DNA of 64,000 nucleotides from contig CAZHJZ010000004.1 in assembly GCA_964532495.1 (NCBI GenBank), forward strand, positions 4,123 to 68,122. The letters run 5' to 3'. The stretch comes from an uncultured Candidatus Saccharibacteria bacterium. GTDB taxonomy: Bacteria; Patescibacteriota; Minisyncoccia; Phycocordibacterales; UBA9973. This document shows positions 49,199 through 63,463 of this stretch, in pieces. Numbering within the stretch: position 1 is the stretch's first letter; each line of letters begins with the position of its first letter. The position numbers and the translations under genes are program-made. Below the pieces are notes generated by a model. That model searched no databases. It saw only the letters and a list, made by a program, of their open reading frames with translations, and was not told where the DNA came from.

Positions 49199-49585
49199 CT
49201 AATCTACTTTTGATGTAAACGGATTTCTCTTTGAAATCCCTTTTAGCATTTTCTTTACGCTTCGCGCTCCTCTTCGGAACACTGAGATCTTATGATCCTT
49301 GCGTTCAGTAACTTGTCGGATCAATTCAGAACTTGCTTCATCCACTGCCGCATAGATATCTTCCGATTCAGCAAACGAATGGAATTTCTCACCATCGATC
49401 ACAATATCGAAATCTGCTTTAAATACTTCTCCTTGTTTATGATGATTGGTTGAGCGCCCTACATCCACGTAAATTCGTTCGATGGTCTGAGATTGGGTGA
49501 ATTTTTCGGCCGCATCGAGCTTTTTTTCAATATGCGCTCGAAGCTCGTCGGTCAATTCGATATTCGTTGCTTTGATGTTTGTCAT
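49199..49585 (-). CDS. hpf: ribosome hibernation promoting factor / RaiA family
   Basis: MTNIKATNIELTDELRAHIEKKL ... beta-alpha-beta-beta-beta-alpha fold motifs. Confidence 0.7.
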   Translation of the reverse strand: MTNIKATNIELTDELRAHIEKKLDAAEKFTQSQTIERIYVDVGRSTNHHKQGEVFKADFDIVIDGEKFHSFAESEDIYAAVDEASSELIRQVTERKDHKISVFRRGARSVKKMLKGISKRNPFTSKVD

Positions 49586-49645
49586 AGAATGGTACTCGTC
49601 TAGGCTGCTAATATATACAGTATACACCTTTCCGAGGATGGGTAG

Positions 49646-49870
49646 TTACTCGATATTCACCGATAGGATCTTGCTCGGACTATGGTGCCCGCTTACTATC
49701 TTTACACGCCCTACTGGAGCCTTAAAATGCCCCGCCACGAGCTCTCTCACCCGAATATTAGCCAGATTGCGCTCAGCAGGCTCTCTGACTGAAATGCGAA
49801 AAGAATCCGGGGCAAGCTCTATAAACTGCTCCTTTTTGACTCCGGCTAAAACCTTAGCTTTGATATACAT
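49646..49870 (-). CDS. DUF167 (YggU) family protein
   Basis: 74 aa, with KAKVLAGVKKEQF....VREPAERNLANIRVRELVAGHF...VKIVSGHHSPSKIL. Confidence 0.5.
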   Translation of the reverse strand: MYIKAKVLAGVKKEQFIELAPDSFRISVREPAERNLANIRVRELVAGHFKAPVGRVKIVSGHHSPSKILSVNIE

Positions 49871-49875
49871 ACCCT

Positions 49876-49904
49876 TTGCATTTTAGCACCTTTTTTGCTA
49901 CTAT
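49876..49904 (+). promoter_or_regulatory. putative promoter for tRNA-Asn
   Basis: TTGCAT, a 17-nt spacer, then TACTAT. Confidence 0.3.
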
Positions 49905-49944
49905 CTTTCGGTAGTTCCACACGGTCTCGAAGCGGAACACATAT

Positions 49945-50016
49945 TCCCCGGTAGCTCAGCGGTAGAGCAATCGCCTGTTAAGCGATTGGTCGTAGGTTCG
50001 ATCCCTACCCGGGGAG
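49945..50016 (+). tRNA. tRNA-Asn(GTT)
   Basis: Acceptor TCCCCGG/CCGGGGA, anticodon stem-loop ATCGC-CTGTTAA-GCGAT and T-arm GTAGG-TTCGATC-CCTAC. Confidence 0.85.
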
Positions 50017-50022
50017 CTTCAC

Positions 50023-50079
50023 AAAAACACCTATTTTATATGGGTGTTTTTGATTGCCATACTTAGGAGTTCGAACCTG
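50023..50079 (+). repeat. type-B intergenic module copy 1: terminator ACACCTAT-tttat-ATGGGTGT+T5, then conserved tail GATTGCCATACTTAGGAGTTCGAACCTG
   Basis: The same architecture recurs at 52571, 55727 and 57676, with tail-only variants at 51029, 51693 and 53609. Confidence 0.6.
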
Positions 50080-50116
50080 TGTTACAATTTGCATATTAGC
50101 GTTAACAATATTTTTT

Positions 50117-50305
50117 ATGAAAACATTAAAGTGTGATTTGTGCGAAACAACAGCTCAAGGAGAAACATTTGAGGCATGGATGCAAAATCTTATGCCGCAC
50201 TATATGCAAGCTCATGCTGACGTTATGAATGACCCCAAGAACGGCAAGGAACAACAGATGAAATGGATGGAAGAAAATAAAAAACGATTTGAAGAAGCCA
50301 AGTAA
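50117..50305 (+). CDS. small DUF1059-like protein
   Basis: MKTLKCDLCETTAQGETFEAWMQNLMPHYMQAH fits the KC.D..C......GET.E...........H pattern. Confidence 0.4.
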   Translation: MKTLKCDLCETTAQGETFEAWMQNLMPHYMQAHADVMNDPKNGKEQQMKWMEENKKRFEEAK

Positions 50306-50311
50306 ATTAGT

Positions 50312-50680
50312 ATGACTATTTTCTTCTTCTACCTCCTTGCATACCTCGTATTGTCTTTCGCACTTGGTGCAATTTGGCACATAGTTTTGTTTAAGGAGTA
50401 TTATAAAAAACTCGCGATATATTCGAACATCGAAAAGCCTCGGTTTGCCTTCGGTTTTTCTGCGATGCTTATTCAAGGTATTGTATTTGCGTATATGTAT
50501 CCGCTCGTACAAAATCCTATTATATTTGGAATTGGACTTTTCGGATTGCTTGCAAGCTTCATGGTATTTGCAGAGGCTGGTAAACAAAATGCTACCTCAT
50601 TATCAGGATTCGTAGGTATCCAGACAGCATTTTCTGCTGTACAAGCTATTCTGGTGACACTAGCCTTTTGGTTGATATAA
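50312..50680 (+). CDS. hypothetical 4-TM membrane protein (DUF1761-like)
   Basis: Hydrophobic helices. The DUF1761 assignment is uncertain. Confidence 0.3.
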   Translation: MTIFFFYLLAYLVLSFALGAIWHIVLFKEYYKKLAIYSNIEKPRFAFGFSAMLIQGIVFAYMYPLVQNPIIFGIGLFGLLASFMVFAEAGKQNATSLSGFVGIQTAFSAVQAILVTLAFWLI

Positions 50681-50691
50681 CAGTACTTGCA

Positions 50692-51000
50692 ATGCCCGTA
50701 AGCAAAAATACATATAAGATACGCTCTGAAGTTTTTCTCTGGCCTGGGATGTCTGGGTGGCATTTTATTGGCGTTCCCAAAAAACAATCGGGGGAAATAA
50801 AAAAACGATTTGGAGCAAACGCTAAAGGTTGGGGTTCGATTCCTGTATCTATAACCCTCGACAAGACAACATGGGACACTTCTATATTTCCCGACAAAAA
50901 ATCAGGTACATACCTACTGCCCCTCAAAGTGGAGGTTCGCAAAAAGGAAGGCGTGCTCGAAGGTGATGTAGTAAATTTCTTTTTGAAGGTAAGAATATAA
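50692..51000 (+). CDS. DUF1905 family protein
   Basis: W.F..VP...........GW.S.PV...L....W.TSIFPDKKSG.YLLPLK..VRKKEG...GD.V. Confidence 0.5.
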   Translation: MPVSKNTYKIRSEVFLWPGMSGWHFIGVPKKQSGEIKKRFGANAKGWGSIPVSITLDKTTWDTSIFPDKKSGTYLLPLKVEVRKKEGVLEGDVVNFFLKVRI

Positions 51001-51028
51001 CTATTTGACCCCATTAATACTCATTAAT

Positions 51029-51067
51029 GATTGCTTTTCGAACATCATCCCAAGTTCGGAGCATTAG
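51029..51067 (+). repeat. type-B tail copy (GATTGCTTTTCGAACATCATCCCAAGTTCGGAGCATTAG)
   Basis: Contains the CGAAC-(10 nt)-GTTCG hairpin and the GTTCGGAGCATTAG box shared with copies at 52620 and 51711. Confidence 0.5.
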
Positions 51068-51094
51068 AACTAGAAACCGATCTTTGTTATACTT

Positions 51095-51688
51095 ATGCAT
51101 ATGACTCTTACAAATCTCGCAATATTGTGTTTTGCTTCTATTTCATACATCGTGGGTTTCTATGCAATTATAAAGAATGGGTATCGTCCTAACATATTTA
51201 CTCGTACCGTATTTCTTTGTTTATCCTTGAACAGTCTTGCCAGTGTTATTAAACTTGGTACCCAATCTTCTACCCTTACACTTGCATATGTTACATTTTT
51301 CGGGAGCTTACTAATATTTACTGGTTCAATTATATTCAAAAGCGAGAGATTGTGGGGTAAAAATGAAACTATTTCTACTATCCTCCTGGTTACCAGTCTT
51401 TTGATTTGGATTTTTACTGATTTTCCCTTACTTAATCTTTGTATAGGACTAATTGCACACTTGTTGGGTTCGTTACCAACCGTTACTCGTGTTATTAAAA
51501 AACCAGGAAGTGAAAATATTCCCTTTTGGTTATTATTTGCATTGGCCAGTATCATAGCTTTACTCTCCACCCATGGTAGCAATATCAAAGATTATATATT
51601 CGCTATATATTTCTGTATTTTTGATAGTGGCATGACGATACTTGCATGCAGAAAGTATTTTATAAAAAATCAATTGCTAACAATCTGA
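51095..51688 (+). CDS. hypothetical polytopic membrane protein (5-6 TM)
   Basis: Hydrophobicity pattern only. Confidence 0.35.
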   Translation: MHMTLTNLAILCFASISYIVGFYAIIKNGYRPNIFTRTVFLCLSLNSLASVIKLGTQSSTLTLAYVTFFGSLLIFTGSIIFKSERLWGKNETISTILLVTSLLIWIFTDFPLLNLCIGLIAHLLGSLPTVTRVIKKPGSENIPFWLLFALASIIALLSTHGSNIKDYIFAIYFCIFDSGMTILACRKYFIKNQLLTI

Positions 51689-51692
51689 CAAA

Positions 51693-51727
51693 GACTGTTT
51701 CGAATATCCTCCCAGGCTCGGAGCAAA
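51693..51727 (+). repeat. type-B tail copy variant (GACTGTTTCGAATATCCTCCCAGGCTCGGAGCAAATT)
   Basis: Aligns to the 51029 and 52620 copies. Confidence 0.45.
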
Positions 51728-51865
51728 TTTGACAATTTAATATTTCATGCTATTGTTCAAGCAATACTGTTTTTTGACACACAACGTTATTTTAGTTGTC
51801 TTACTCGTGGTTCTTGAAGGGGTCACTAGTAAGACAACTAATTCTTCACAAAATTTAAACACACC
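51728..51865 (+). promoter_or_regulatory. type-A promoter/leader module copy 1
   Basis: TTGACA (51729-34), a 16-nt spacer, TGcTATTGT extended -10, then TTTTTTGACACA. The hairpin is AGTTGTCTTACT-[cgtggttcttgaaggggtcact]-AGTAAGACAACT (51794-51839), and the ATG is at 51866. Confidence 0.5.
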
Positions 51866-52477
51866 ATGGGTCAACGCATCTATAAAATTATTACTGACAA
51901 GGGAATATTGTATGCCGTATTTGATAAGGTTCTTGACCAATTTGTGACTCCACCTGCTGCATCAGTATCAGCACTAGAGCACGATGCGGAAGAGGCGAGC
52001 GAGGAAGGCATACTTGACCTTACTTCTAAAACACTCAATAAAGTTGATGCTGCTATAGCAAAACTTGAAGCAGGAAAAAATCTGAATAAGGGAGAGGTTG
52101 CTACCCTCTATTCTTTTAACAAGTTTCTTGAAGGAACAGTAGCAGAGCATCAATATACGTACCCAGAAATCGATCCAAAAAAAATTGAGGGTTGGATTTC
52201 AGAACTTAATCTAAAAGAACAGTTTATTGCTCAAGGTGATGAAAACGTTAGAAATTTTATTCACGACAAAGCGCTCTACCCTTCTTACCAACAAAGAGCA
52301 TTAAACCCAAAACGACCATTAAAAGAATTAGACAAGGCGTCACCAAGTCAAAAAAAGCTTGCTGGCCGCTATCTCCGGGCACTAGTAACCATCGGAAACA
52401 TACTTGGACCTAAAAAATCAACTATCAAACAAGTACTTACCAAATTTTTCAAAAAACTCGAAGGCACAGACAATTAA
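51866..52477 (+). CDS. hypothetical protein (203 aa)
   Basis: No recognisable motif. A strong 15-bp hairpin terminator follows at 52504-52542 (AATATCTCGCCATAA-gat-TTATGGCGAGATATT+TTATTT). Confidence 0.35.
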   Translation: MGQRIYKIITDKGILYAVFDKVLDQFVTPPAASVSALEHDAEEASEEGILDLTSKTLNKVDAAIAKLEAGKNLNKGEVATLYSFNKFLEGTVAEHQYTYPEIDPKKIEGWISELNLKEQFIAQGDENVRNFIHDKALYPSYQQRALNPKRPLKELDKASPSQKKLAGRYLRALVTIGNILGPKKSTIKQVLTKFFKKLEGTDN

Positions 52478-52570
52478 TAAAAATCGTTCTGTCATTCAGT
52501 CCCAATATCTCGCCATAAGATTTATGGCGAGATATTTTATTTAGGGTTCAGAGGCTACAAAAATACTTTT

Positions 52571-52644
52571 ACACACATTTTATATAGATGTTTTTGACTG
52601 CCGTACTTAGGAGTACGAACATCGTCGCATGTTCGGAGCATTAG
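52571..52644 (+). repeat. type-B module copy (degenerate terminator + tail TGACTGCCGTACTTAGGAGTACGAACATCGTCGCATGTTCGGAGCATTAG)
   Basis: Full-length tail containing the 7-bp hairpin CGAACAT-cgtcgc-ATGTTCG. Confidence 0.55.
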
Positions 52645-52645
52645 T

Positions 52646-52785
52646 TTGACAAAAATAAAATATCGTTATAATGTGATTTAAATCACGGTTTTTTTGACAT
52701 ACCTAGTTATTGCTTATTGTGTCACCTCTGTCTCTTTATAGAAATAGTGGTGACGCAATAATTTTCTCACTTCATAACGACTACA
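52646..52785 (+). promoter_or_regulatory. type-A-like promoter/leader module (variant)
   Basis: TTGACA (52646-51), a 15-nt spacer, then TATAAT (52667-72). Next come the palindrome GTGATTTAAATCAC, the motif TTTTTTTGACATA, and a 13-bp leader hairpin TTATTGTGTCACC...GGTGACGCAATAA (52714-52761). The ATG is at 52786. Confidence 0.5.
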
Positions 52786-53151
52786 ATGAAAACAATGACT
52801 TTAACTGTCTGCGGATTTTACGTAAAACACGAAAACCTGCCAGGAATTCAGGATTTAGAAGCACAACATTGCTTAAAATACACCAGTGTGTCCAAAGAGC
52901 GCACGCATGCCTTAGACAACATGAGTGGCGAGATTACCCTAAACGCAGGGAGCCGCGAAGCAACAATGAAGCAAGGCGACAACCAATTTTCCTTTACTAT
53001 TTTGTCAGTGACAGGCTTAAGTCTGCCTGGACAAAATGAAACCTACCCTGAACTGCAATTTGGTTCAGAAGAAGATTGCGAATTCCGCCTAATCACGAAA
53101 CCAGATATAAATGTGGGACAAATCAATACATTTATTCAGAAAAACCTCTAA
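52786..53151 (+). CDS. hypothetical protein (121 aa)
   Basis: ORF only. Confidence 0.3.
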   Translation: MKTMTLTVCGFYVKHENLPGIQDLEAQHCLKYTSVSKERTHALDNMSGEITLNAGSREATMKQGDNQFSFTILSVTGLSLPGQNETYPELQFGSEEDCEFRLITKPDINVGQINTFIQKNL

Positions 53152-53161
53152 AACAAATAAC

Positions 53162-53521
53162 ATGTCTAGGAAAAGAAAAATTAAGACGGAAGCAGAAATA
53201 AATTTTGAAAACTTACAGAAATATATTGCGCCAAATACCATGGAGGAATATGTTTCATCATGCCGTAAAAGCCTTCAAAATTTCTTTGGCGAATCAAAAA
53301 TACAATTTACTCGATTGGTTTATGATGGATTAGGCACAGAAACAACAGCCACCTGTACTGTTAAACATAAACATAAAAAGACAGACCCAATCGCAACAAT
53401 CGTGTGGTCAAATGATGGGCAAACTCTTACAATTAACGATACTCAAATACCCTATTCTTTCGGCAGAATGGTTAACCTAATGAATGAATTAGGAAAATTG
53501 TTAGATAAGTTAAACCTATAA
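53162..53521 (+). CDS. hypothetical protein (119 aa)
   Basis: ORF only. Basic N-terminus MSRKRKIK. Confidence 0.3.
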   Translation: MSRKRKIKTEAEINFENLQKYIAPNTMEEYVSSCRKSLQNFFGESKIQFTRLVYDGLGTETTATCTVKHKHKKTDPIATIVWSNDGQTLTINDTQIPYSFGRMVNLMNELGKLLDKLNL

Positions 53522-53558
53522 AATATAAGTTAGTACACAACTCTAGTAAACATCTTTA

Positions 53559-53640
53559 CCATCATCTCGCAAGGGATGGTGGCTTTTTATGCCCTATCAT
53601 ATTTTAATATTGCCATTCGAACATCCCCCAAGTTCGGATC
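53559..53640 (+). repeat. type-B-like module (terminator CCATC..GATGG+T5, tail ATTGCCATTCGAACATCCCCCAAGTTCGGATC)
   Basis: Aligns with the 51029 copy. Confidence 0.45.
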
Positions 53641-53731
53641 AAAATTTCTGTATAACCGACCATCCTCATTTGATTGGTTTTAAACAACCAGTTGCTTTTT
53701 CGCCATTCCTGATTACGGTATACTAATAGTC

Positions 53732-55711
53732 ATGAAACGCAGCCATATATTTTTTGCGGTATTCTTATTAGGATGCTTGGCATTTATTGGATCATCGAGA
53801 ACCGCACATGCGAGCACACTTCCCACCCAGCAACCATTTCTTTACAATTTACGTCTTGGCGCAATGGATAGCGATGTAGCACGTTTGCAAAAATACTTGA
53901 ACGAGCACGGCGCTCTCGTAGCCACATCTGGCCCGGGATCATTAGGAAATGAAACCCAATACTACGGACCAGCGACGGCGCGTGCGATGCGGCTTTTCCA
54001 AGAAAAGCATGCGGGAGCAATCCTCTTCCCTTTGGGCCTCACCAAAGGAACAGGCAATTTTTATACTGCCACTCGAAATTTTGTAAACCAAACTCTGGGG
54101 CAAGACCCGATCTCTGAAACAGTTTCAAAAACAAGCGGCTACTATACTATCGGCGGCACACTAACAGGCATTACTGGCCAAATAATACTTCGAAATAATA
54201 CTGACACCATAACTATTAATCCCGGCCAGAGCGCTACCTTTCGTTTTCCCACTAAACTTGCTTCAGGCCAATCGTACAACCTTGCCGTAACTCAAATGCC
54301 AAATGGTCAACACTGTTTTATCGCTCCTGGTCAAAATAGCAACGGCGTCGTATATAACTCCGATGTGAACATTCCTATCCAATGTAGCAGCAATGGCTTA
54401 AACCCATTTAAACCACTTATCCCATCAAGCGGCATAGCAACATATACAATCGGCGGAACGGTTTCAGGATTGACTGATACGGTGATTCTTGAAAAAAGCA
54501 ACGGCGACAGTCTAACTATTTCAAACAATGGTGCTTTTGCATTTCCAACTGCTATCGCATCGGGCGGTTCATATTCGGTCAGTATTACATCTCAGCCAGC
54601 CGGACAGACCTGCAACATTGTAAACGACAATGGCACAAATATAAGCGCTAATATCACCAACATTGATGTCTCATGTGTCACCAATACATTCACTGTAGGC
54701 GGAACAGTTTCGGGACTTTCGGGGACTGTCATCTTGTTGAACAATGGAGGAGATGCGAACACGCTAACAAGTGATGGACCGTTTACATTTGCAACTCCGG
54801 TAGCAGAAGGCAGTCCTTACAGTGTGGCTGTACAAACTCAACCCGCAGATCAAACCTGTGTTATTACAAACAGTACCGGCATAATGGGAGGATCAAATGT
54901 GACCAATGTCAGTGTGAGTTGTTCGCTCACTCTTGTAAGCATTACAGTTACGCCAAGCAATTCTTCTCTTCCAAGGACCATTACTAAGCAATTCACTGCA
55001 ATTGGACAATATGCGGATTCAAGCACAGCAGACATTACAGCATCTGTGGCTTGGGATACGTCCAATCATAGTATTGCGACGATCAATGGCACTGGATTAG
55101 GAACAGGAGTCAGCTCAGGAACAACACAAGTCTCTGCAACATTGGATGGTGTTGTTGGAAACACAAATCTAACCGTAACCAATGCAACGTTAGTAGCCAT
55201 CACAGTCTTACCGAATAGTTCAACTCTTCCGACCGGCATCAATTTGCAATATACAGCCCAGGGTATTTTTTCCGATGCAAGCACTGTTAACATTACCAAT
55301 CAAGCTACGTGGGAGGTATCCGACCCGACTATTGCCACAATTGATGGCACACGATTGGTGACTGGCGTTTCCCCTGGAATAACACAAATTAGGGCATCCC
55401 TGAATGCTGTTCTTGGAAGTACAAACTTAACAGTAACCGATGCTATTTTGGTATCCATCACAATCTCCCCTTCAAATCCTTCCGTCGCGAGAAACTCCAC
55501 ACTCCAATTATCAGCCATCGGTACATTCAGTGATAGTTCTGCCGTAAACATTACCAATCAGGCTGCTTGGACTTCTACAGCAACAAGCGTTGCAACCGTC
55601 AATAACACTGATCACAAAGGAAAGGTTACCGGTGTCGCAGGAGGAGCATCAAGTATTCGTGCAAGCCTTACCTTTATTATGGGCACTGCTACGCTGTTCG
55701 TAGGTTCTTAA
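53732..55711 (+). CDS. secreted cell-surface protein: signal peptide, peptidoglycan-binding domain, 4x ~90-aa repeats, 3x Big_2 (bacterial Ig-like) domains
   Basis: PG_binding_1-like LRLGAMDSDVARLQKYLNEHG...YGPATARAMRLFQ. Repeats of the form YTIGGT[VL][ST]G[IL]T..VIL. Big_2 repeats such as ITVTPSNSSLPRTITKQFTAIGQYADSS..DIT..VAW.TSN..IATI. Confidence 0.6.
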   Translation: MKRSHIFFAVFLLGCLAFIGSSRTAHASTLPTQQPFLYNLRLGAMDSDVARLQKYLNEHGALVATSGPGSLGNETQYYGPATARAMRLFQEKHAGAILFPLGLTKGTGNFYTATRNFVNQTLGQDPISETVSKTSGYYTIGGTLTGITGQIILRNNTDTITINPGQSATFRFPTKLASGQSYNLAVTQMPNGQHCFIAPGQNSNGVVYNSDVNIPIQCSSNGLNPFKPLIPSSGIATYTIGGTVSGLTDTVILEKSNGDSLTISNNGAFAFPTAIASGGSYSVSITSQPAGQTCNIVNDNGTNISANITNIDVSCVTNTFTVGGTVSGLSGTVILLNNGGDANTLTSDGPFTFATPVAEGSPYSVAVQTQPADQTCVITNSTGIMGGSNVTNVSVSCSLTLVSITVTPSNSSLPRTITKQFTAIGQYADSSTADITASVAWDTSNHSIATINGTGLGTGVSSGTTQVSATLDGVVGNTNLTVTNATLVAITVLPNSSTLPTGINLQYTAQGIFSDASTVNITNQATWEVSDPTIATIDGTRLVTGVSPGITQIRASLNAVLGSTNLTVTDAILVSITISPSNPSVARNSTLQLSAIGTFSDSSAVNITNQAAWTSTATSVATVNNTDHKGKVTGVAGGASSIRASLTFIMGTATLFVGS

Positions 55712-55726
55712 TTTAATGTAACTAGC

Positions 55727-55780
55727 AAAAACACTCATTTTATATGGGTGTTTTTATTTACTCTACTTACAAGTTCCAAC
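55727..55780 (+). repeat. type-B module copy (terminator ACACTCAT-tttat-ATGGGTGT+T5, degenerate tail ATTTACTCTACTTACAAGTTCCAAC)
   Basis: Aligns to the 50023 copy. Confidence 0.5.
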
Positions 55781-55799
55781 TTTTGATATACTCATATCT

Positions 55800-56504
55800 A
55801 TGGAACAGCCAAGAATGAATCAGCCCCCTACCCCTCAGTGGTCACATTTAGAAAAAGGATACGCTCCGATACGTACCTGTATCAATGATGCTGAAAATCT
55901 CACAGAAGAAACAAAAGAAAAGATCCAGGAAATAAAAAACAACGGACTGGAAGTTCCAATGGATAGTATTTCGCAAATTGATGAAAAAGAGAAACACTCT
56001 TTGGGGTATGCTTACTGCACAGGCATTATTATGACTGGAGTTGATAAGCATACAGGAAAACAAATATCATTCATGGCACACAAGGATCCTCACGGTTTAA
56101 AATCTGACAGTTTCAGAATTGATTTGGAAAAGAGAACCAGTGAACTGTTGAGCAGATCATTACCAAGAAGCGTGGATGCTGTACTTTTTGGTGGTAGAGG
56201 CGGACATATACATGACACTGACAGGCACGAGGATTCAATGAAATATTGGTCTGAAATTTGTAAAAAAATACTGCATTTTGAACCAACAATTTTGGGAGGT
56301 CCGAATATTTGGCCATTGCGCACAGCAGACAACTGGACAGAAAAGGAGAGAAAAGAGAGAGATAAATGGACGGATGTCTATTTTGATACTGAACATCGTC
56401 GGCTCGAATTAGTTCGAGTGGAACAATATAATAGCAAGCTCAATGAGCCTTTTACTGCTGCGGACTACTCAAAACAAAAAGAACGATGGGAGGGAGCCGA
56501 ATAA
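55800..56504 (+). CDS. hypothetical cytoplasmic protein (234 aa)
   Basis: ORF only. Confidence 0.35.
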   Translation: MEQPRMNQPPTPQWSHLEKGYAPIRTCINDAENLTEETKEKIQEIKNNGLEVPMDSISQIDEKEKHSLGYAYCTGIIMTGVDKHTGKQISFMAHKDPHGLKSDSFRIDLEKRTSELLSRSLPRSVDAVLFGGRGGHIHDTDRHEDSMKYWSEICKKILHFEPTILGGPNIWPLRTADNWTEKERKERDKWTDVYFDTEHRRLELVRVEQYNSKLNEPFTAADYSKQKERWEGAE

Positions 56505-56620
56505 AATTGACAATCCAATATTTCATGCTATTGTTCAAGCAAGAGTGCTTTTTGACATTTGTTTATTAGTGACCAGAGAAGGCCTCCCCTTTTGCGGCCA
56601 CTAATAAACCGCACCGTGAA
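56505..56620 (+). promoter_or_regulatory. type-A promoter/leader module copy 2
   Basis: TTGACA (56507-12), a 16-nt spacer, TGcTATTGT, then TTTTTGACA (56552-57). The hairpin is TTAGTGACC-[agagaaggcctccccttttgc]-GGCCACTAA (56566-56604). An alternative partner TGGTCAC lies at 56648-56654. Confidence 0.5.
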
Positions 56621-56723
56621 AAACAAAAAACGATTATTCTTTCTTAGAAGTTGGTCACATTTCATACTATCTACTGTTTTATTTCTGGTAACCGCCTATG
56701 TACTAGTAATAAACAATTACAAC

Positions 56724-57128
56724 ATGAGGTATGAAAATACAGCAGTACAGGTAGTCGGCTATCATCCAGGACACACCGACAAACACAACAATATAGAAGA
56801 CTATTACCTTATTGCCCGCACAAAAGATTCAAAACTAGTCAGAATTTTAGTAAGCGAAAAGACTCGCCGGCATCTAGCTATCGGAAGCAAGTCAGTATTC
56901 CCTTTACGTAAAGTAGATATCGACCCAACAGACATTAGAGGCCCTATTTATTTCTTCAGTGCAATACTGTTGTCATTTATTTCTGTTTCGTACTTTTTCT
57001 TTTTATTCCTTTTCTATTTTGGATTGTATAAAGAATGGGATAACGTTCAGCAAAACAGTCTAGGTGGTTCAAACACACCTAGCACGCTACGACTACCCCT
57101 TTTGGGAGGATTCCTGTTTCGACAGTAA
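56724..57128 (+). CDS. hypothetical membrane protein (start uncertain)
   Basis: The ORF track begins at 56559 but runs through the leader hairpin. The first ATG is at 56724. C-terminal TM IYFFSAILLSFISVSYFFFLFLFYF. Confidence 0.3.
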   Translation: MRYENTAVQVVGYHPGHTDKHNNIEDYYLIARTKDSKLVRILVSEKTRRHLAIGSKSVFPLRKVDIDPTDIRGPIYFFSAILLSFISVSYFFFLFLFYFGLYKEWDNVQQNSLGGSNTPSTLRLPLLGGFLFRQ

Positions 57129-57263
57129 GATTAAAAAATGTAAAAAGGCTTGTAATTGTATATATACAATTACAAGCCTTTATTATTTCTCTCTTCAAAT
57201 CACCTTTAGTGACGGGTCTTTTTGATTCATACTATGAAATTCAAAGTATGATAAAATAAATAT

Positions 57264-57641
57264 ATGAAAACAAATAGCAAAAAATATGTAGACGGGTTTG
57301 TAATCCCAATAAAAAAGAAGGACTTAGCAGCATATAAGAAAATGGCAACATGGGGAGCAGGCATGTGGATGAAGTATGGCGCTCTCAGTTATTTTGAATG
57401 TGTTGGAGAAGATCTTGGAGTAAAGAACGGCATGGGAATGGGCTTCAAGAAGCTCGCTGGATTGAAGGCCAATGAGACCGTTATCTTTTCATTCATCGTA
57501 TATAAGTCGAAAGCAGACAGAGACCGAATCAATAAGAAAGTGATGAGCGATCCTTCAATGAAAGACTTTGATGAAAAATCAATGCCTGTCGATATGAAGC
57601 GATTCGTTTGCGGCGGGTTTGATACGCTCGTCGAAGGATAA
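57264..57641 (+). CDS. DUF1428 (YbaA-like) family protein
   Basis: YVDGFVIPIKKKDLAAYKKMA...YFECVGEDL...ETVIFSFIVYKSKADRDRINKKVMSDP. Confidence 0.55.
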   Translation: MKTNSKKYVDGFVIPIKKKDLAAYKKMATWGAGMWMKYGALSYFECVGEDLGVKNGMGMGFKKLAGLKANETVIFSFIVYKSKADRDRINKKVMSDPSMKDFDEKSMPVDMKRFVCGGFDTLVEG

Positions 57642-57675
57642 TACTTCAAATACCTTTAAGATCCCCTAGACGCCA

Positions 57676-57727
57676 AAAACACCCATGCAAGATGGGTGTT
57701 TTTGAATCATGATATACTTTACGAACT
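57676..57727 (+). repeat. type-B module copy (terminator ACACCCAT-gcaag-ATGGGTGT+T5; tail GAATCATGATATACTTTACGAACTT)
   Basis: Same stem sequence as the 50023 and 55727 copies, with a different loop. Confidence 0.55.
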
Positions 57728-57730
57728 TAT

Positions 57731-58675
57731 ATGAAACTTCATCCTGACAAACAGCTTGAAATTACGCAGCCCGCTATCGCTCAGATTTTAAGCTTATATG
57801 CTATTTCTGATTTCACTTTCCAGCCTATCAAGGCAGGCATCGAAAATACTTCAGTATATATCGAAACCGGAGGAAAAAAGTGCGTCCTTCGTATCTATAG
57901 TCAAGGGAAAAAACCTGACAACATCATTTTTCTTGAGCTAGAGTTTCAAGACTATCTGCGCACGCGAGGAATACCCATTCCACATATCTACCCTACTTTG
58001 CAAAACCAGCCTCTTGCTATTGTTGAGATAAATGGAAAACGCTGGCAAGCCATTTTAATGGAATTTAAAGAAGGGATGAGCACTGAAATTCACCCAAACA
58101 ATGCATTGCTCGCAGAACTAGCCCGAACCCAAGCAAACATGCATATCCTTGGAATGGAATTTGCTAAAAAGGCTGCAACGCTACAACCACCGATAGCTAT
58201 TGTGACGGTCGAAACAGCCGGGAAAATTAAAACTTCCCCGATTCAAACAAAAGAGATGCTTGATTTTATCAACCGAGCCAAATCTTTTGCTTATCGACTT
58301 GACCCTCTCCTTCCCCACGGATACAACCATCTTGATTTAGATTTCGATGGCAATGTCATAGTAACGGGAAACACTATTGCCGCCATTGTGGACTTTGATG
58401 ATTTGAAATACTCGCCTGCAGTGATGTGTCTAGGATTTACGCTATGGAAAATACTGAATGACAAAGGCATAGAAGGATTTCGGTATTATTTGAATGAATA
58501 CCAGAAGGTTCGACCCCTCACAGAGCCAGAGCGGCAAGCGCTTCCGCATATCGTTTTCTTTCGAAATTACGAAGTTGGCATCATACTGCTTTTATTATGG
58601 GAACATGATACGCCGCTTACTGACATTCTTGCTATTCTCCAGCTCGAAAAAGAGCTGCCTGAATTACTCGGATAG
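57731..58675 (+). CDS. phosphotransferase family protein (APH/ChoK-like kinase fold)
   Basis: Brenner motif region HLDLDFDGNVIV and DFDD. Confidence 0.55.
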   Translation: MKLHPDKQLEITQPAIAQILSLYAISDFTFQPIKAGIENTSVYIETGGKKCVLRIYSQGKKPDNIIFLELEFQDYLRTRGIPIPHIYPTLQNQPLAIVEINGKRWQAILMEFKEGMSTEIHPNNALLAELARTQANMHILGMEFAKKAATLQPPIAIVTVETAGKIKTSPIQTKEMLDFINRAKSFAYRLDPLLPHGYNHLDLDFDGNVIVTGNTIAAIVDFDDLKYSPAVMCLGFTLWKILNDKGIEGFRYYLNEYQKVRPLTEPERQALPHIVFFRNYEVGIILLLLWEHDTPLTDILAILQLEKELPELLG

Positions 58676-58678
58676 CAC

Positions 58679-58990
58679 CTAGTCCTTCTCCACAAAATCC
58701 TTCAATGCCTCCAATCGCTTTTCCCACTGCAATTCAAGCTTTGCGATGAACTTTTTTACAACACCCAGCGAGCGAGTGTCGAGAGACACAGTAGTATCCC
58801 TGCCGGCGGTTTTCAATATCACAATTTTTGCATCTTCTAAGATATGGAGATGCTTTCGTGCTCCCTGTCTGGTAAGCGGCAATCCTTTGACGAGAGAGCT
58901 TATGGTATACACTTTCCCGCCAGAAAGACGCTCAACCATTTCTAGCCTTGTCTCATCACCCAGCGCACGAAATAATTCAGCAGTGCTCAT
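58679..58990 (-). CDS. ArsR/SmtB family transcriptional regulator
   Basis: ELFRALGDETRLEMVERL...ISSLVKGLPLTRQGARKHLHILEDAKIV wHTH. Confidence 0.65.
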   Translation of the reverse strand: MSTAELFRALGDETRLEMVERLSGGKVYTISSLVKGLPLTRQGARKHLHILEDAKIVILKTAGRDTTVSLDTRSLGVVKKFIAKLELQWEKRLEALKDFVEKD

Positions 58991-59439
58991 TATTGCTGTT
59001 GGCTGAATACTTTCTCGAGGCGATTCATCATATAGTCCCAACCGCCAGAATTATCCTTAAAGCTTTTCTCTGCCATCTCGACAGGCAATGCGGCAAAGCC
59101 AGATTCTTTGACTGTTACCTTTGTTCCTTCTGATTGTTCTTCGATTAAAAACTCAACGAGCGTATGAGGCAGTGACATAACATCTTCTCCGCCCTTATCG
59201 TTCCCTCCTGGAATCCATCGGAATGAGAAATAATCAAACGGCGTAGCTTTTTCGATATGCACTTGGGCTTTGTTTTTGCCGCCATTGAAAATAAACAGCG
59301 GGTTTTGACCTTCTTCCAACGTTCCGTTCTCTATTGCGTCAGGAAACCACGCCACCACCTTTGCGGGGTCAGTAATTGCACCATACACTTTTTCTTTATT
59401 CGCCTTAACTATGATTTCACGGCTTATGACATCTTGCAT
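58990..59439 (-). CDS. SRPBCC (AHSA1/Aha1-like) domain protein
   Basis: IIVKANKEKVYGAITDPAKVVAWFP...IPGG. Its stop overlaps the ArsR start (TAATG). Confidence 0.6.
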   Translation of the reverse strand: MQDVISREIIVKANKEKVYGAITDPAKVVAWFPDAIENGTLEEGQNPLFIFNGGKNKAQVHIEKATPFDYFSFRWIPGGNDKGGEDVMSLPHTLVEFLIEEQSEGTKVTVKESGFAALPVEMAEKSFKDNSGGWDYMMNRLEKVFSQQQ

Positions 59440-59537
59440 ATTTTTTATATTTTTATGATTAGTATCTAACTTCCCTACTATATATCAGTATGATATTTTA
59501 TGCAACTATTTGGTTGCATATATATTTTAGTAGGCAT

Positions 59538-59655
59538 ATTTGACAAATTGATATTTCATGCTATTATTCAATCAATACTTTTTGAAAATATATATTTTGT
59601 GGTTATCAGAGAAGGGCGCTCCCCTTTTGCGATAACCACAAAATCAAAAGAACGA
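59538..59655 (+). promoter_or_regulatory. type-A promoter/leader module copy 3
   Basis: TTGACA (59540-45), a 16-nt spacer, TGcTATTAT, then TTTTTGAAAATA. The hairpin is TGTGGTTATC-[agagaagggcgctccccttttgc]-GATAACCACA (59598-59640), and the ATG is at 59656. Confidence 0.5.
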
Positions 59656-60279
59656 ATGAAACAGACATGCCTGCTAGTTATCCTGCTATTCTTATTCGGT
59701 TGCAATCAACCCAAGGTAGTACAAGAAGAAGTATTTACAGCAGAAGATACCATTTCCGTAGATACTTCTATCACACAGCGGATTACGGTATATGGTGATG
59801 TTCACGCCCTTCTCAACGAACGAGTAGTTCCTGAAGAAGTACAGCAAATCCAGCGATGGCTTTGCGATAACATCAGTGAAGAGATCGTTGTTGCGGAAGG
59901 TGTTCCCTATGGCGATTCTGTAACGATTAGATCACTTATCGCTGAAATAAAAGCTGAAGCTCCTGAAATCACTGATGCGCAGATACTAGAACGCCTTACC
60001 TCTCTCAACGAAGTAAATAACACCTACTTTACGAGTTTTTTACTGAAAGGAAACAAACTTTTATTCGGAGGTGAAAATGATTCGCTATACACCGCTATCG
60101 GGAACCTAGAAGATAGAACTTCCCCAGCCAATGTAAATGCTCGAAGTCGTGCTATTTTCTTGAATGCAGTTACGATTGCACGAAAATACCCTACGCAAAA
60201 GATTGCAATAGTAATCGGACGCAGGCATTTATCATGGTTCTCATGCAATGGCATAAAAACCATTGACCCAAAAAAATAA
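59656..60279 (+). CDS. hypothetical lipoprotein
   Basis: Lipobox LLFLFGC. Confidence 0.45.
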   Translation: MKQTCLLVILLFLFGCNQPKVVQEEVFTAEDTISVDTSITQRITVYGDVHALLNERVVPEEVQQIQRWLCDNISEEIVVAEGVPYGDSVTIRSLIAEIKAEAPEITDAQILERLTSLNEVNNTYFTSFLLKGNKLLFGGENDSLYTAIGNLEDRTSPANVNARSRAIFLNAVTIARKYPTQKIAIVIGRRHLSWFSCNGIKTIDPKK

Positions 60280-60389
60280 GCTCATTGCAAACAATATTAT
60301 TAACTCACTTCATAGTTTATCTATGGAGTGAGTATTTTTATTTATAGAGCATGATTCACAGTGATTTGAATCATGGTATACTTTTTTAC

Positions 60390-61175
60390 ATGAAATTTAA
60401 AACGCTTCAATGGAACATCAACGGCGGCAAAATAAGAACTGCCGATTCTGATCCAACAAAAGGTCCTGGGTCGTTGAAACCCAGCTATATTCACGAAGGC
60501 TTCGACTACATTGTTTCAAAAATAAAAGAATATGATGTTGATATTATTACACTTCAAGAAACTCATGCCGATACCCATACTATTCAAGCTCAAGTAATTG
60601 CCGAAAAACTAGGCTTTCCATATTGGACAAACGATAGATACGAAGAGTCCCACTTAGAAAAAGGCCAGGGCTTGTGCCAATCCATTATTTCAAAATATCC
60701 AATTTCCTATCATACATTTGAACTATTCAATAATCCTTATTTTGAAGCCGTTGCCGAAGACGGCAGCACCTGGATCTCGCATGATAAAGGATATTCTTTA
60801 GCAGAAATGACATTATCTGAAGACAAAATGCTAACTGTTATAACACTACACCTTCTACCATTCCCTCGTTTCAAACTCGCACTCGACGATAGAAGTGTTA
60901 TAGAAGTTCTCACAGAAGTTTCCAATAAATTAGTACCACATACCTCAAACCTAACTTTAATTCAGGGTGACTTTAATATCGATGATATATCGTTAAAATC
61001 ACATCTTCCGGAACTATTTACCTCCCTACAAGAAATTGAAGCGGCTCAACCTACTACCCCGGGCGACAGCAGGTTTGACCATGTGTTATATAAAAATGTA
61101 CAGTTAATTTCTACCAAGGTCTATGATACTGTACTAACTGATCATTACCCTATAATTTCAGAATTTGAAGTTTAG
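60390..61175 (+). CDS. endonuclease/exonuclease/phosphatase (EEP, DNase I-like) family protein
   Basis: WNINGG N-terminus, ITLQET, GDFNID, and a C-terminal DH..ISEF motif. Confidence 0.65.
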   Translation: MKFKTLQWNINGGKIRTADSDPTKGPGSLKPSYIHEGFDYIVSKIKEYDVDIITLQETHADTHTIQAQVIAEKLGFPYWTNDRYEESHLEKGQGLCQSIISKYPISYHTFELFNNPYFEAVAEDGSTWISHDKGYSLAEMTLSEDKMLTVITLHLLPFPRFKLALDDRSVIEVLTEVSNKLVPHTSNLTLIQGDFNIDDISLKSHLPELFTSLQEIEAAQPTTPGDSRFDHVLYKNVQLISTKVYDTVLTDHYPIISEFEV

Positions 61176-61182
61176 AATTTTT

Positions 61183-61716
61183 TCAATTAGCAATTAAAGA
61201 TACAATCTTCTCTGCAACGTCTTTAGAATCCCCATGCGCATCTACAATTACCGCTCCGCGGGCAACCATTTTATCTTCCCATGTTTTTTTCCATCCTATA
61301 ATCCAATCTTGGACTTCAATCGTTTTTCCAAAATCATTATTGTTATCTCTAGATGTAAGCCTTTCCCGGGTTGTTTTTTCATCAACCTGTAAAAGGATAA
61401 TCTTATTAAAAAATGGAAGGATATCGTGCATATTGCTTGCGCTTCCGCAATAAAACGACACACCCTCTACATCAGCTTCAATTAGTGATGAGAGCTTCGC
61501 TGTATCGCAAATCCATTCCGTCGCCCTCACTTTTCCTAGATTCGCATTATCATGACTAGGAATCGGCTCGCGTGTCTCCTTGTCGACAAGCATAAATAAA
61601 CCTCTTTTTTTATCCATATCACATGCTTGGTATCCCATTGCCTTTAATTCTGCACAGATGGTTGTTTTGCCCGAACCATTAACACCCGTAATAAGGATAG
61701 TTTTTTTCATGAACAT
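61183..61716 (-). CDS. P-loop NTPase (AAA/nucleoside-kinase-like)
   Basis: Walker A ILITGVNGSGKTT and Walker B-like IILLQVDE. Confidence 0.5.
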   Translation of the reverse strand: MFMKKTILITGVNGSGKTTICAELKAMGYQACDMDKKRGLFMLVDKETREPIPSHDNANLGKVRATEWICDTAKLSSLIEADVEGVSFYCGSASNMHDILPFFNKIILLQVDEKTTRERLTSRDNNNDFGKTIEVQDWIIGWKKTWEDKMVARGAVIVDAHGDSKDVAEKIVSLIAN

Positions 61717-61755
61717 AGTATATCAAACCAGCAACCACTTTTACGCTCGAGTGAA

Positions 61756-62907
61756 TTACTGATACTGTATGAAGCTCGGCTGCGGAGTAAACTTTAATAT
61801 CTGCGCAGGTGTAAGAAGCGCTGTTGAGGGCTCGCGCAGGTCATTCTTGTAGAACAATTTGATGCCGGTAAACTGCACCGGCTCACTGCTGACGACTGCC
61901 TTGTAAATATTACTTTTCAAGAGCGGAGGACCCCATCCATCAGCATCCATGACTATCTGCACTTCTGGAAGAGGCGTAATGTTTTCCGAATGTGTCACCA
62001 TATGTTCGGTGAATCGATGGACGACAAGAATTTTCGGAGGGAGATCGTATTTTTTAACGAGAGATGCCAAATAGTCTGCGACATAATTTATATCCGTTGC
62101 ATCCATGGTACCGATAACACTGCCGGGGCGGTTTCCTCCCTTCATTGAAAATTCCGGATCAAGCGCAAGGTGCACTTGCGGAAGCTTAAGATATTCTTCA
62201 AGTCGAGGGATTTCGCTCTCCACATCGCTTAGTCCGTTCTGGACATCAAGTATCACGATACCATTGGCCTCTTTAGCAAGCTCAATTGCCTTATCGATCT
62301 GATCAAACGGCATGCGAGCCCGATACTTGCCATCAAAGCCGGCGCTTCCCTGCGCAGTTACTGCAATATATTCTATGGCAGGAACAACAGGCGTCGATGG
62401 ATCAGCAGTATTCCATTCGGCTATCGCAGCTCTAAATTTTTGCAACATAACCTCTGGTTCATATTCTCCCAATACCCCCATTCTCGTTGAATAGAAATTG
62501 CCGTAATAAGCAACGATGCGGTTGAAAGGTAAAAGCGCTCCTGGAAGCGGATAGGCAGCTTTGACAGGCCATGGTGATGCGACGACAGGCTTTGGGGCAA
62601 CAGCTGGAGTAGGAGTGGCAGTAGCAGTACCGGTTGTCGCAGGAGTTGGAGCAGCAACCACTGGCACATTGGCGATCTGCAGCAACTTTGCATCATAGGC
62701 AGCCTTGTCTAAAACTGGCTTTGCTTTTGGAGTTGGTACCGTGATGCTTTTAACCTCCTTTGAAACTCCAGCATCATAGTGAACCGAAAAGAGACGTGTG
62801 CCGCTAATAACATACACAAACACGAAACCAATAATCCCCACCCCTACGATCCACGCAACAACCCTGAGATTCTTATTTTTGAGAACTTTTTGAGAAATAT
62901 TTTGCAT
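61756..62907 (-). CDS. hypothetical membrane-anchored protein with Thr/Pro/Ala-rich linker and C-terminal alpha/beta domain
   Basis: The start is taken at MQNISQKV. The ORF-track extension up to 63063 overlaps the next gene. Confidence 0.35.
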   Translation of the reverse strand: MQNISQKVLKNKNLRVVAWIVGVGIIGFVFVYVISGTRLFSVHYDAGVSKEVKSITVPTPKAKPVLDKAAYDAKLLQIANVPVVAAPTPATTGTATATPTPAVAPKPVVASPWPVKAAYPLPGALLPFNRIVAYYGNFYSTRMGVLGEYEPEVMLQKFRAAIAEWNTADPSTPVVPAIEYIAVTAQGSAGFDGKYRARMPFDQIDKAIELAKEANGIVILDVQNGLSDVESEIPRLEEYLKLPQVHLALDPEFSMKGGNRPGSVIGTMDATDINYVADYLASLVKKYDLPPKILVVHRFTEHMVTHSENITPLPEVQIVMDADGWGPPLLKSNIYKAVVSSEPVQFTGIKLFYKNDLREPSTALLTPAQILKFTPQPSFIQYQ

Positions 62908-63004
62908 AGTATCCGTAAATATTAACACACTTAGAGAGTAATTCGAAGATATGCGCATTATAAAAAGCGCTCTTGCAGAAGCGCTTTTTAAACATATATT
63001 ACTT

Positions 63005-63295
63005 TTATTGCTGAGCTGTCGTACCTCCAGTAGTTCCGGCGGTAGATGCTCCAGTCGCAGCACCAGTTGTTCCGCCTGTAGTATCAGGTTTTGGAATTGT
63101 TACATTGATGTTAGTTTCAGCTGGAGTCTGAGGCTGAGCTGTATTGTTTGCTCTGATCATCGGCAAGATATAGATGAAGAAGAGTGCGATCAAGACGAGT
63201 GATACGAGAACTCCAATAATAAGACCAGATCCGCCACCATCGTTGTTGTTATTGTTTGCTCCATGCTCTCCTGGATTATTGATTACTGTCGTCAT
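63005..63295 (-). CDS. small membrane protein with Gly/Thr-rich tail
   Basis: TM LIIGVLVSLVLIALFFIYILPMI. Confidence 0.3.
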   Translation of the reverse strand: MTTVINNPGEHGANNNNNDGGGSGLIIGVLVSLVLIALFFIYILPMIRANNTAQPQTPAETNINVTIPKPDTTGGTTGAATGASTAGTTGGTTAQQ

Positions 63296-63463
63296 AGCGA
63301 TAACTCTAAATTATTATATTGATAACTACACCTTTGCGTCAGAGAGACCTGTATTCAGTATACCACTGTATACGCGATTCCCTCCTGTATACAAAGACGT
63401 TTGGATGCCAGATATCGTTACATATCGCTGCTGGAGCAATAGCCTCATTGCTCGAATCTACAT

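Follow-up and report, generated by a model that had tools for sequence, protein, structure and literature searches.

Probable Gene Cassettes Downstream of tRNA-Asn in a CPR Bacterium and Their Link to a Family of Large Serine Recombinases

The region downstream of the tRNA-Asn gene in an uncultured “Candidatus Saccharibacteria” bacterium, a member of the candidate phyla radiation (CPR), is probably an array of small gene cassettes. It lies in a stretch of 64,000 nucleotides (assembly GCA_964532495.1, contig CAZHJZ010000004.1, positions 4,123 to 68,122; here, the window), in which three short intergenic motifs recur: a 27-nt “box,” an intrinsic terminator, and a conserved tail. In our interpretation, these motifs are likely to mark the cassette boundaries, and the box probably represents an attachment-site arm of a family of large serine recombinases (LSRs). 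This view is carried by a defined site, a rule of orientation, an anchor at tRNA-Asn, exact homology breakpoints, an overlap between the LSR gene and the site, the integration of LSR elements at a GGAGCA core, and one comparison of an empty with an occupied site, all of which can be seen in the sequences of related metagenomic loci (designated by L numbers). Thus, an idea put forward in a first-pass annotation of the window, namely, a cassette-like organization that arose by recombinational shuffling and is anchored at tRNA-Asn, gains support from the breakpoints at GGAGCA and from the LSR overlap.

Box, terminator, and tail elements in the window

The first-pass annotation treated the motifs as one module in seven copies. 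They resolve instead into two separate elements, with four boxes and three or four terminator(-tail) blocks, at frequencies far above chance. The box (27 nt, TTCGAACATCnTCCCAnGTTCGGAGCA) is located at 51037, 51699, 52614, and 53616, that is, 1.0 to 3.6 kb downstream of tRNA-Asn and in one orientation; the hairpin box pattern matches the first three of these sites, and the copy at 53616 is one base shorter. The terminator pattern AAACACCCATnnnnnATGGGTGTTTTT matches at 50025, 55729, and 57677 with 0 to 1 mismatches (0 matches expected), and the tail pattern TACTTAGGAGTTCGAAC matches at 50060 (0 mismatches), 52604 (1 mismatch), and 55764 (3 mismatches), with 0.1 match expected. Independent profiles, built solely from foreign metagenome sequences, were run on the window. 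They recover just these sites and no other place in the 64 kb: the E values are 7e-13 (51037), 1e-9 (51699), 4e-9 (53616), and 2e-7 (52614) for the box profile and 9e-9 (50024), 0.04 (55730), and 2.2 (52573) for the terminator-plus-tail profile. By pattern and profile, several of the window sites are degenerate. An Rfam search of positions 49500 to 64000 (E ≤ 1) found only the tRNA and no family at the motifs. The tRNA gene and the elements are as follows.

49945 to 50017, + strand: tRNA-Asn (GTT), found with ARAGORN and Rfam; anchor of the putative array, with a 3' end (...GGGGAGC) that forms an attB-type junction.
50025 to 50051, + strand: intrinsic terminator that opens putative cassette 1 and is predicted to end the tRNA-Asn transcript (pattern and profile).
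50053 to 50088, + strand: tail and promoter block of putative cassette 1, GATTGCCATACTTAGGAGTTCGAAC followed by CTGTGT and the -10 hexamer TACAAT (50083 to 50088); profile E value of 9e-9.
51018 to 51063, + strand: box copy 1 (core, 51037 to 51063, TTCGAACATCATCCCAAGTTCGGAGCA), the 3' boundary of putative cassette 1 (genes, 50117 to 50997).
51692 to 51725, + strand: box copy 2 (core, 51699 to 51725), with three mismatches and, directly after it, the TTGACA promoter of the next putative cassette (51729 to 51756).
52566 to 52640, + strand: fused copy, in which a degenerate terminator (52566 to 52597) and the left half of a tail (to 52620) are joined to box copy 3 (52614 to 52640).
53599 to 53641, + strand: box copy 4 (core, 53616 to 53641), one base shorter, with a GGATCA end and the canonical upstream sequence TAATATTGCCATT.
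55727 to 55792, + strand: terminator (55729 to 55755), diverged tail TACTTACAAGTTCCAAC (55764 to 55780), and -10 hexamer TATACT (55787 to 55792); profile E value of 0.04.
57647 to 57718, + strand: probable decayed box (57647 to 57673), terminator (57677 to 57703) with no real tail, and -10 hexamer TATACT (57713 to 57718).

The terminators with a shared stem are where the first-pass annotation had placed them: the stems at 50025, 55729, and 57677 are each followed by T5, a stem-loop plus T run after a gene as in an intrinsic terminator, and a degenerate copy occupies 52566 to 52597. A terminator consensus scan of the window lists 55727 to 55755. The first copy was also correctly described as following tRNA-Asn directly, and the G+C content drops at this point, from 0.45-0.47 before the tRNA gene to 0.36-0.41 downstream. 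The same hairpin follows tRNA-Asn or a box in other genomes, and, as read from the alignment, changes in its stem preserve pairing.

Other parts of the earlier description stand only in part or not at all. A tail was said to follow each terminator; it exists at 50060, 52604, and, with three mismatches, 55764, but there is no real tail at 57677. Likewise, hairpin copies were said to abut the TTGACA of a promoter module named type A (see below), which is true of the boxes at 51699 and 52614 only and not of those at 51037 and 53616. The proposed order of terminator, tail, and hairpin is the reverse of the canonical order across metagenomes (box, terminator, tail) and is found only in the fused copy at 52566 to 52640, in which the tail half and the box meet at a common T(A/T)CGAAC. 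Furthermore, the GGAGTTCGAACC core of the tail was likened to a tRNA T-arm and read as a possible remnant of one. When three tails were aligned locally with tRNA-Asn and with five pseudo-tRNAs (see below), the scores were mostly no better than those of shuffles (within 2 standard deviations, with two pairs scoring higher), and tail and T-arm have only the GTTCGAAC(C) core in common, so that such a derivation gains no clear support. The actual link to the tRNA is apparently functional, in that the box would recombine with the tRNA-Asn 3' end, whose GGAGCA core it shares.

Four putative cassettes can be delimited in the window. Cassette 1, directly after tRNA-Asn, starts with a terminator and a tail and contains three genes ahead of the box at 51037. 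A membrane protein gene and the box at 51699 make up cassette 2. In cassette 3, a type-A promoter is followed by a gene for a protein of 203 amino acids and by the fused terminator-tail/box at 52566 to 52640. Cassette 4 also opens with a type-A promoter; it includes two genes and closes with the box at 53616, just upstream of which lies a gene terminator (53559 to 53582). Beyond cassette 4, the sites are decayed: the terminator-tail at 55727 has no detectable box ahead of it, and a probable box remnant at 57647 precedes the terminator at 57677. The sole indication that 57647 to 57673 is probably a decayed box is its alignment to a degenerate box after a DUF1428 homolog in L048, and the profile misses this segment.

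The spacing TTCGAA-N7-TAnnnT recurs, in our reading of the alignment, in several metagenome tail copies, and in the window, an ATG at 55800 lies 7 nt past the TATACT at 55787 to 55792. TATACT is found 7 nt before the ATG, with no visible ribosome-binding site, in several genes of the island downstream of tRNA-Asn (51088 to 51103, 53719 to 53734, and 55787 to 55802). The pattern TATACT-N7-ATG has six matches in the 64 kb, four of them in the island (51088, 53719, 55787, and 60377); a further island match to the pattern, at 52782, overlaps its own ATG. The island genes with a -10 hexamer about 7 nt ahead of the ATG suggest leaderless mRNAs.

Putative cassette boundaries and a linked large serine recombinase

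Confinement of the motifs to a single locus, which the first-pass annotation had named as an argument against cassettes, is not what we find. The box pattern CGAAYATCN{3,4}CANGYTCGGAKCA was found in at least 120 metagenome contigs in one scan, so that the cassette idea stands on this point. Among 104 distinct matches with full flanks, 97 have less than 45% G+C, and the AT-rich contigs also share flanks outside the pattern. Twenty-five matches in viral contigs were rejected as chance occurrences in GC-rich coding DNA. A profile search yielded 180 boxes in 107 AT-rich loci, and in an Rfam search of 20 related loci, no match overlapped a box. The boxes obey a rule of orientation, as mixed orientation occurs in none of the 48 loci that have two to five boxes, and they are anchored at tRNA-Asn: 19 of the 21 tRNA genes of box-seeded loci are tRNA-Asn genes, and in the 22 loci containing both, each of the 43 boxes is on the tRNA-Asn strand and downstream of the gene. 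The 71 distinct inter-box units (median, 779 bp; interquartile range, 544 to 1,279 bp) mostly contain one open reading frame (ORF), usually in box orientation, and show the integron-type trait of a co-oriented array of mostly single-ORF cassettes.

What follows a box varies. It is the terminator, the tail, and a -10 hexamer in about a quarter of cases and the type-A TTGACA promoter in about 14%; other options are a terminator plus a pseudo-tRNA-Asn of about 130 nt and the recombinase gene. The tRNA-Asn gene itself is followed by the same alternatives, which vary by genome. The tRNA-Asn array of L048 shows an apparent shuffling of window genes directly, with homologs of the gene at 50117 (62 amino acids) and of the DUF1428 gene at 57264 (93% amino acid identity and 81% DNA identity) in another order and with other neighbors.

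In some boxes, the arms TTCGAAC and CCCAAGTTCGGAGCA are 16 to 85 nt apart instead of 10. The inserts of these long-loop boxes are partly homologous to each other (...TATACACAAACTTTA...GCAGGCA...) and recall the variable center of attC.

L048, 2444 to 2510: long-loop box.
L160, about 2652 to 2750, - strand: long-loop box.
L077, about 4852 to 4920, - strand: long-loop box.
L066, L089, and L138: further long-loop boxes.

Homology between loci ends precisely after GGAGCA, on both sides of a cassette. For example, L147 and L154 are 97% identical to the left of this junction and unrelated to the right of it, and the pairs L103/L124 and L093/L119 behave alike. One cassette, which encodes a nucleotidyltransferase, has together with its box three different right neighbors (a pseudo-tRNA in L097, the LSR gene in L120, and a type-A promoter in L110) and four left neighbors (a pseudo-tRNA or three different boxes), and its homology starts with a terminator-tail block right after GGAG(C)A. 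Another cassette is preceded by three box variants: a short box in L075, one with a loop of about 40 nt in L077, and one with a loop of about 85 nt in L160. These breakpoints imply that a cassette begins immediately behind one GGAGCA and ends with the GGAGCA of the box that comes next. They also imply that the terminator-tail, at which homology starts, is the 5' end of a class of cassettes and lies outside the site.

The first-pass annotation proposed to look for a linked recombinase, and one is present in related loci. It is an LSR with Resolvase, Recombinase, and Zn_ribbon_recom domains, which is the most recurrent protein cluster in box-bearing loci (six loci, tied with one other cluster) and their sole recurrent recombinase, and its gene overlaps either the tRNA-Asn 3' end or the box. 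In all six integrated elements (L106, L129, L165, L166, L168, and L170), the gene is on the strand opposite the tRNA and its 3' end overlaps tRNA-Asn; its last codons (…LLRG-stop, or …LLGR-stop in L166) correspond to the tRNA-Asn 3' end in reverse complement. Instead, the gene reads through the box at its 3' end in L120 and L078, with a C terminus of …LLRTWDDVR…-stop (in full, …LLRTWDDVRMEIMRKNY-stop) that is the reverse complement of the box plus a conserved 20 nt upstream. Among the best 120 LSR homologs, 44 end in LRG-stop, which is encoded by the tRNA acceptor and T stem read on the opposite strand, while others run into reverse-complement tRNA and a few have a box-encoded extension. When the L106 recombinase is joined to the far-end box, the predicted C terminus is …TWLRTWEDVRIEII-stop, the expected excised form. 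The C terminus varies with the integration state because the LSR reading frame crosses the crossover point. Across the LSR family (P0001-P0120), C termini in the attP configuration are …LLRTWDDVR…-stop or …LRTTNWEEMFPFPSVSLQQIK…-stop, and there is DSNL/GIEP-type read-through into other reverse-complement tRNAs.

An empty and an occupied site were compared in L045 and L170, which come from strains that are 99.7% identical. The insert in L170 is 8.75 kb long and encodes the LSR, an excisionase-like HTH_17 protein, and a replication-initiator-like protein; phage structural genes are absent. Only the 7-bp overlap GAGCAGA is shared by attB, attL, and attR. At attR, 8.75 kb away from the tRNA, a diverged box forms the P arm, which argues that the box is the P arm of the recombinase; this is one empty/occupied comparison, made in a sister subfamily. 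The canonical box at the far end of L170 belongs to the host-flank array, which is also present in the empty-site L045, and is not the attR of the element. A box lies 9.7 to 11.4 kb from the tRNA::LSR junction in L106, L129, L165, and L170. In L120, the tRNA and the LSR gene are separated by two recombinase-less cassettes, and the LSR frame is completed by the box of the adjacent cassette. Read in the LSR frame, the two box positions that vary freely fall on third codon positions, and other third positions are invariant, which implies a constraint on the box at the DNA level too. For this reason, coding constraint was rejected as the sole cause of box conservation.

A second LSR copy is found about 10 kb away in L168, which indicates that the elements occur in tandem. 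The LSR elements of 9 to 11 kb carry restriction-modification cargo in L165 (7995 to 9996) and L168 (4422 to 8235), of the types DNA methylase with RE_HpaII and MethyltransfD12 with RE_AlwI. A LOOT RNA (Rfam RF03000, 80 to 82 bits) was detected in L129 (6852 to 6975, - strand), inside an LSR element of about 10 kb, and in L126 (789 to 916). No relatives of the LSR were found in IMG/VR.

Proposed mechanism and alternative explanations

We propose that the box and about 20 nt upstream of it would constitute the P arm of an LSR family that targets the tRNA-Asn 3' end in Paceibacteria-type CPR bacteria, with crossover in or beside the shared GGAGCA core. The terminator and tail would be the conserved 5' end of one common cassette class (the terminator, then a promoter block), and the same block follows tRNA-Asn itself. 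When a unit begins with a terminator, transcription of tRNA-Asn or of the preceding cassette would stop there, and such terminators may have been retained since any unit could come to lie immediately after the tRNA gene. The tail would be a promoter for leaderless mRNAs, with TTCGAA-N7-TAnnnT and an ATG about 7 nt later (at 55787 in the window) and with similar spacing in foreign copies. The LSR presumably acts on the boxes, and single-gene cassettes that lack a recombinase may be excised and inserted in trans. That the same enzyme would move them is suggested by L120, with its two recombinase-less cassettes and its LSR frame completed by a cassette box. A more tentative proposal, with a substantial but less than even chance of being right, is that of an integron-like gene-capture platform of Paceibacteria-type CPR bacteria that is run by an LSR. 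Single-gene cassettes with their own terminator and promoter and a 27-nt end site would then be excised and inserted in trans at the tRNA-Asn 3' end or at boxes, and the LSR C terminus would be rewritten at each event.

Several observations weigh against the cassette reading. The evidence is wholly comparative and comes from short metagenome contigs seeded with the box pattern itself, few genes of the window cassettes reappear in other arrays, circular cassette contigs were looked for and not found, and the LSR gene is absent from the window (tblastn with the L094 LSR; best E value, 0.04). LSRs as usually described recombine attP with attB only, and the sequence to the right of GGAGCA differs between cassettes, which is hard to square with recognition of two half-sites. 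About 5% of boxes have an insert of 16 to 85 nt between the arms, which a double-stranded half-site should not tolerate, and the reading does not account for the conservation of the tail.

The main rival explanation is accretion followed by decay. Each box would be the attR scar of a whole 9- to 11-kb LSR element at tRNA-Asn, and the short units would be deletion remnants that never moved as units. This scenario needs nothing but ordinary attP-attB chemistry; some complete elements do have both a tRNA::LSR junction and a site at the far end, and the degenerate state of several window sites and the failure to find circular cassettes fit it. However, it accounts for scars and not for the two-sided precision of single-gene units: such units are precise on both sides, one of them has several neighbors, and the 71 units have a median of only 779 bp. 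Furthermore, recognizable LSR fragments are present in only about 10 of about 107 box-bearing loci, what follows tRNA-Asn in the window is an intact terminator-tail and not LSR remains, and L120 has its two recombinase-less cassettes between the tRNA and the LSR gene. We consider accretion and decay alone unlikely, although still a serious competitor.

The remaining explanations appear far less probable. If the motifs were regulatory punctuation, the box would be an operator or a small RNA hairpin at a transcription-unit boundary, and duplication of the genes would have copied this boundary too. The box can indeed fold into a 7-bp hairpin whose loop contains UCCC, a -10-like TAtaAT is located 8 to 13 nt upstream of it, and the terminators and promoters are genuine parts of the blocks. 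However, among 168 distinct boxes, no stem position shows a compensatory change and 26 have an unpaired A·C, on which grounds the small-RNA/hairpin reading was rejected; some boxes precede the 3' end of a gene on the reverse strand (L048), there is no Rfam match, and the breakpoints lie exactly at GGAGCA. A regulatory role also gives no rationale for the strict tRNA-Asn link or for the overlap with the LSR frame, and we regard it as very improbable. The arms CGAAC…GTTCG recall the LexA boxes of Gram-positive bacteria; a LexA site (Cheo-box) was rejected in spite of the match to CGAAC/GTTCG, on account of a conserved spacer of 10 nt and a contrary genomic context. Slightly less probable still is a classical integron or a set of Xer/pdif-type modules moved by a tyrosine recombinase, the box being an attC or dif-like site, even though one-ORF units are arrayed in one orientation and the site is an imperfect inverted repeat whose center varies in length in a minority of copies. 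An attC site is about 57 to 141 nt long, with paired R''/L'' and L'/R' boxes, whereas the box has 27 nt, one 7-bp stem, and a conserved loop, with longer centers in only about 5%; moreover, the cassettes bring their own promoters and the LSR is the only recurrent recombinase. Box-bearing loci totaling about 560 kb gave no XerD-like tyrosine recombinase (best E value, 0.14, with a probe of limited sensitivity). We give the least credence to a repetitive extragenic palindromic (REP) or miniature inverted-repeat transposable element (MITE)-like repeat that was spread by transposition. It would explain a short palindromic intergenic repeat with many copies across genomes, but the window copies are confined to one 3.6-kb stretch of the 64 kb, and orientation and position relative to tRNA-Asn are uniform in every related locus. 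Terminal inverted repeats and target duplications were not seen, and ORFs resembling DDE-type transposases are only sporadic.

The putative array, known from sequence, can be compared with known systems. As in the staphylococcal cassette chromosome (SCC and SCCmec, with CcrAB/CcrC at the rlmH 3' end), an LSR would insert DNA at the 3' end of a conserved housekeeping gene and leave that gene active, and tandem units, some without a recombinase of their own, lie between short repeated attachment sequences. Here, however, the target is a tRNA gene, the host is a CPR bacterium, the units are mostly single genes of about 0.8 kb (about 20 to 60 kb in SCC), and the recombinase gene overlaps the site, so that its C terminus changes on integration. 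With integrons (IntI, attI, and attC), the locus shares a fixed platform with co-oriented cassettes, most of them of one ORF, a highly diverse gene pool, a conserved imperfect palindrome at the cassette 3' end, and a crossover at the edge of the palindrome. It differs in its candidate serine (not tyrosine) recombinase, in a site of 27 nt instead of 57 to 141 nt, in cassettes that carry a terminator and promoter, and in a platform that is a tRNA 3' end and not attI with a Pc promoter. Cis-mobilizable elements (CIMEs) beside integrative and conjugative elements (ICEs), such as ICESt1/ICESt3 of Streptococcus, likewise show tandem site-specific accretion and att-flanked elements that lack an integrase and could be mobilized by a resident recombinase, but they use tyrosine integrases, are much larger, and do not form arrays of up to five single-gene units. 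The tycheposons of Prochlorococcus, on which there is a preprint (bioRxiv 10.1101/2020.12.28.424599), are similar in that tRNA-linked integrative elements and their remnants build islands of variable cargo in streamlined genomes; they have mostly tyrosine recombinases and several tRNA targets, and their cargo is not bounded by a universal 27-nt site. Finally, phiC31/Bxb1-type LSR elements resemble ours in the domain set of the enzyme, the short attB/attP overlap (7 bp here), and an adjacent excisionase-like gene. Unlike them, our elements are about 9 to 11 kb in size, have a replication-initiator-like gene and no phage structural genes, and leave the attP arm as a site conserved across arrays of recombinase-less units.

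A full-text literature search, whose coverage left out most subscription journals, turned up no account of such arrays or of CPR bacteria with LSR elements at tRNA-Asn. CPR genomes are about 1 Mb in size. If our interpretation is true, these bacteria would have, in a fixed locus that collects and shuffles accessory genes, a main route of adaptation, and serine-recombinase chemistry would be able to support integron-like cassette arrays. Kinases, nucleotidyltransferases, restriction-modification systems, and surface proteins are among the products of the genes seen at these loci. Genome engineering has a demand for LSRs, and the data give a large natural series of LSR/attachment-site pairs with a compact, recognizable site. 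The box may also serve as a simple marker of variable islands in CPR assemblies.

Genomic setting, type-A modules, and unusual tRNA-Asn forms

All genes downstream of tRNA-Asn are on the + strand up to 58.7 kb of the window, and they are of small accessory types or belong to no family. The types include DUF1905, a Big_2/PG_binding (surface) protein, DUF1428, an APH-type kinase, ArsR plus AHSA1, an EEP nuclease, and an AAA kinase. A protein search with Fmt led to metagenome-assembled genomes labeled Paceibacterota, Saccharibacteria, or Parcubacteria, the nearest having 71 to 79% Fmt identity, and the gene order fmt, tRNA-Asn is kept in the closest Fmt relatives wherever the contig extends that far. 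The exact motif patterns are absent from 18 loci chosen by Fmt synteny, and the type-A promoter is the sole motif common to the window and the Fmt-synteny loci L001 and L002. An exact-protein look-up of the window genes gave matches in the source sample only. Public assemblies break at this place: two Logan contigs of SRR12404947 (L172 and L019) end or start inside or just past tRNA-Asn (about 49971 and 50011 in the window), and the L001 contig ends (8953) 47 nt past its tRNA-Asn, within the type-A promoter. Such breaks at the tRNA-Asn junction are consistent with repeats or strain variation there.

The type-A module is a promoter plus leader with three parts. The first is a strong promoter, TTGACA-N16-TGnTATTGT. 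The second is a U-rich box, YTTTTTGAMA in the window and (A/T)GTTCTTTGA(A/T)AT in many loci, which we take to resemble the boxA antitermination element of rrn/nut. The third is a hairpin whose outer stem varies and yet pairs (GTGACC/GGTCAC, GTGGCC/GGCCAC, and GGTTAT/ATAACC) around the conserved AGAGAAGG…CCCCTTTTGCG. The module has no match in Rfam and may be a new leader RNA or an antitermination site. It directly follows tRNA-Asn in L002, and a variant nearest to the window copy at 52646 follows tRNA-Asn in L001.

51729 to 51865, + strand: type-A promoter and leader that start the next putative cassette.
52646 to 52785, 56507 to 56615, 59540 to 59655, and 63465 to 63577, + strand: further type-A modules of the window.
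L002, 11734 to 11850, 12784 to 12915, and 13484 to 13590: type-A modules.

The pseudo-tRNA-Asn elements, of about 130 nt, have an acceptor-like 5' strand and the 3' end CCTACCCGCGGAGCA, which close large inserted hairpins. They are placed after the terminator at a cassette start and end exactly at the junction, and they are recognized by neither ARAGORN nor Rfam. A second LSR copy is integrated into the pseudo-tRNA of L129, which suggests that pseudo-tRNAs may act as extra landing sites.

L154, 6290 to 6420: pseudo-tRNA-Asn.
L129, 10640 to 10740: pseudo-tRNA-Asn.
L045, L097, L138, L085, L127, L101/L157, L083, L071, L126, L059, and L115: further pseudo-tRNA-Asn elements.

The anticodon loop of tRNA-Asn itself is interrupted in L083 (3480 to 3769), L120 (5326 to 5964, - strand), L156 (324 to 957), and probably L007. 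The insert in L083 is a group I intron (Rfam RF00028), and that in L120 contains a small ORF with a CxxC…CANCH motif, whose product looks like an HNH homing endonuclease.

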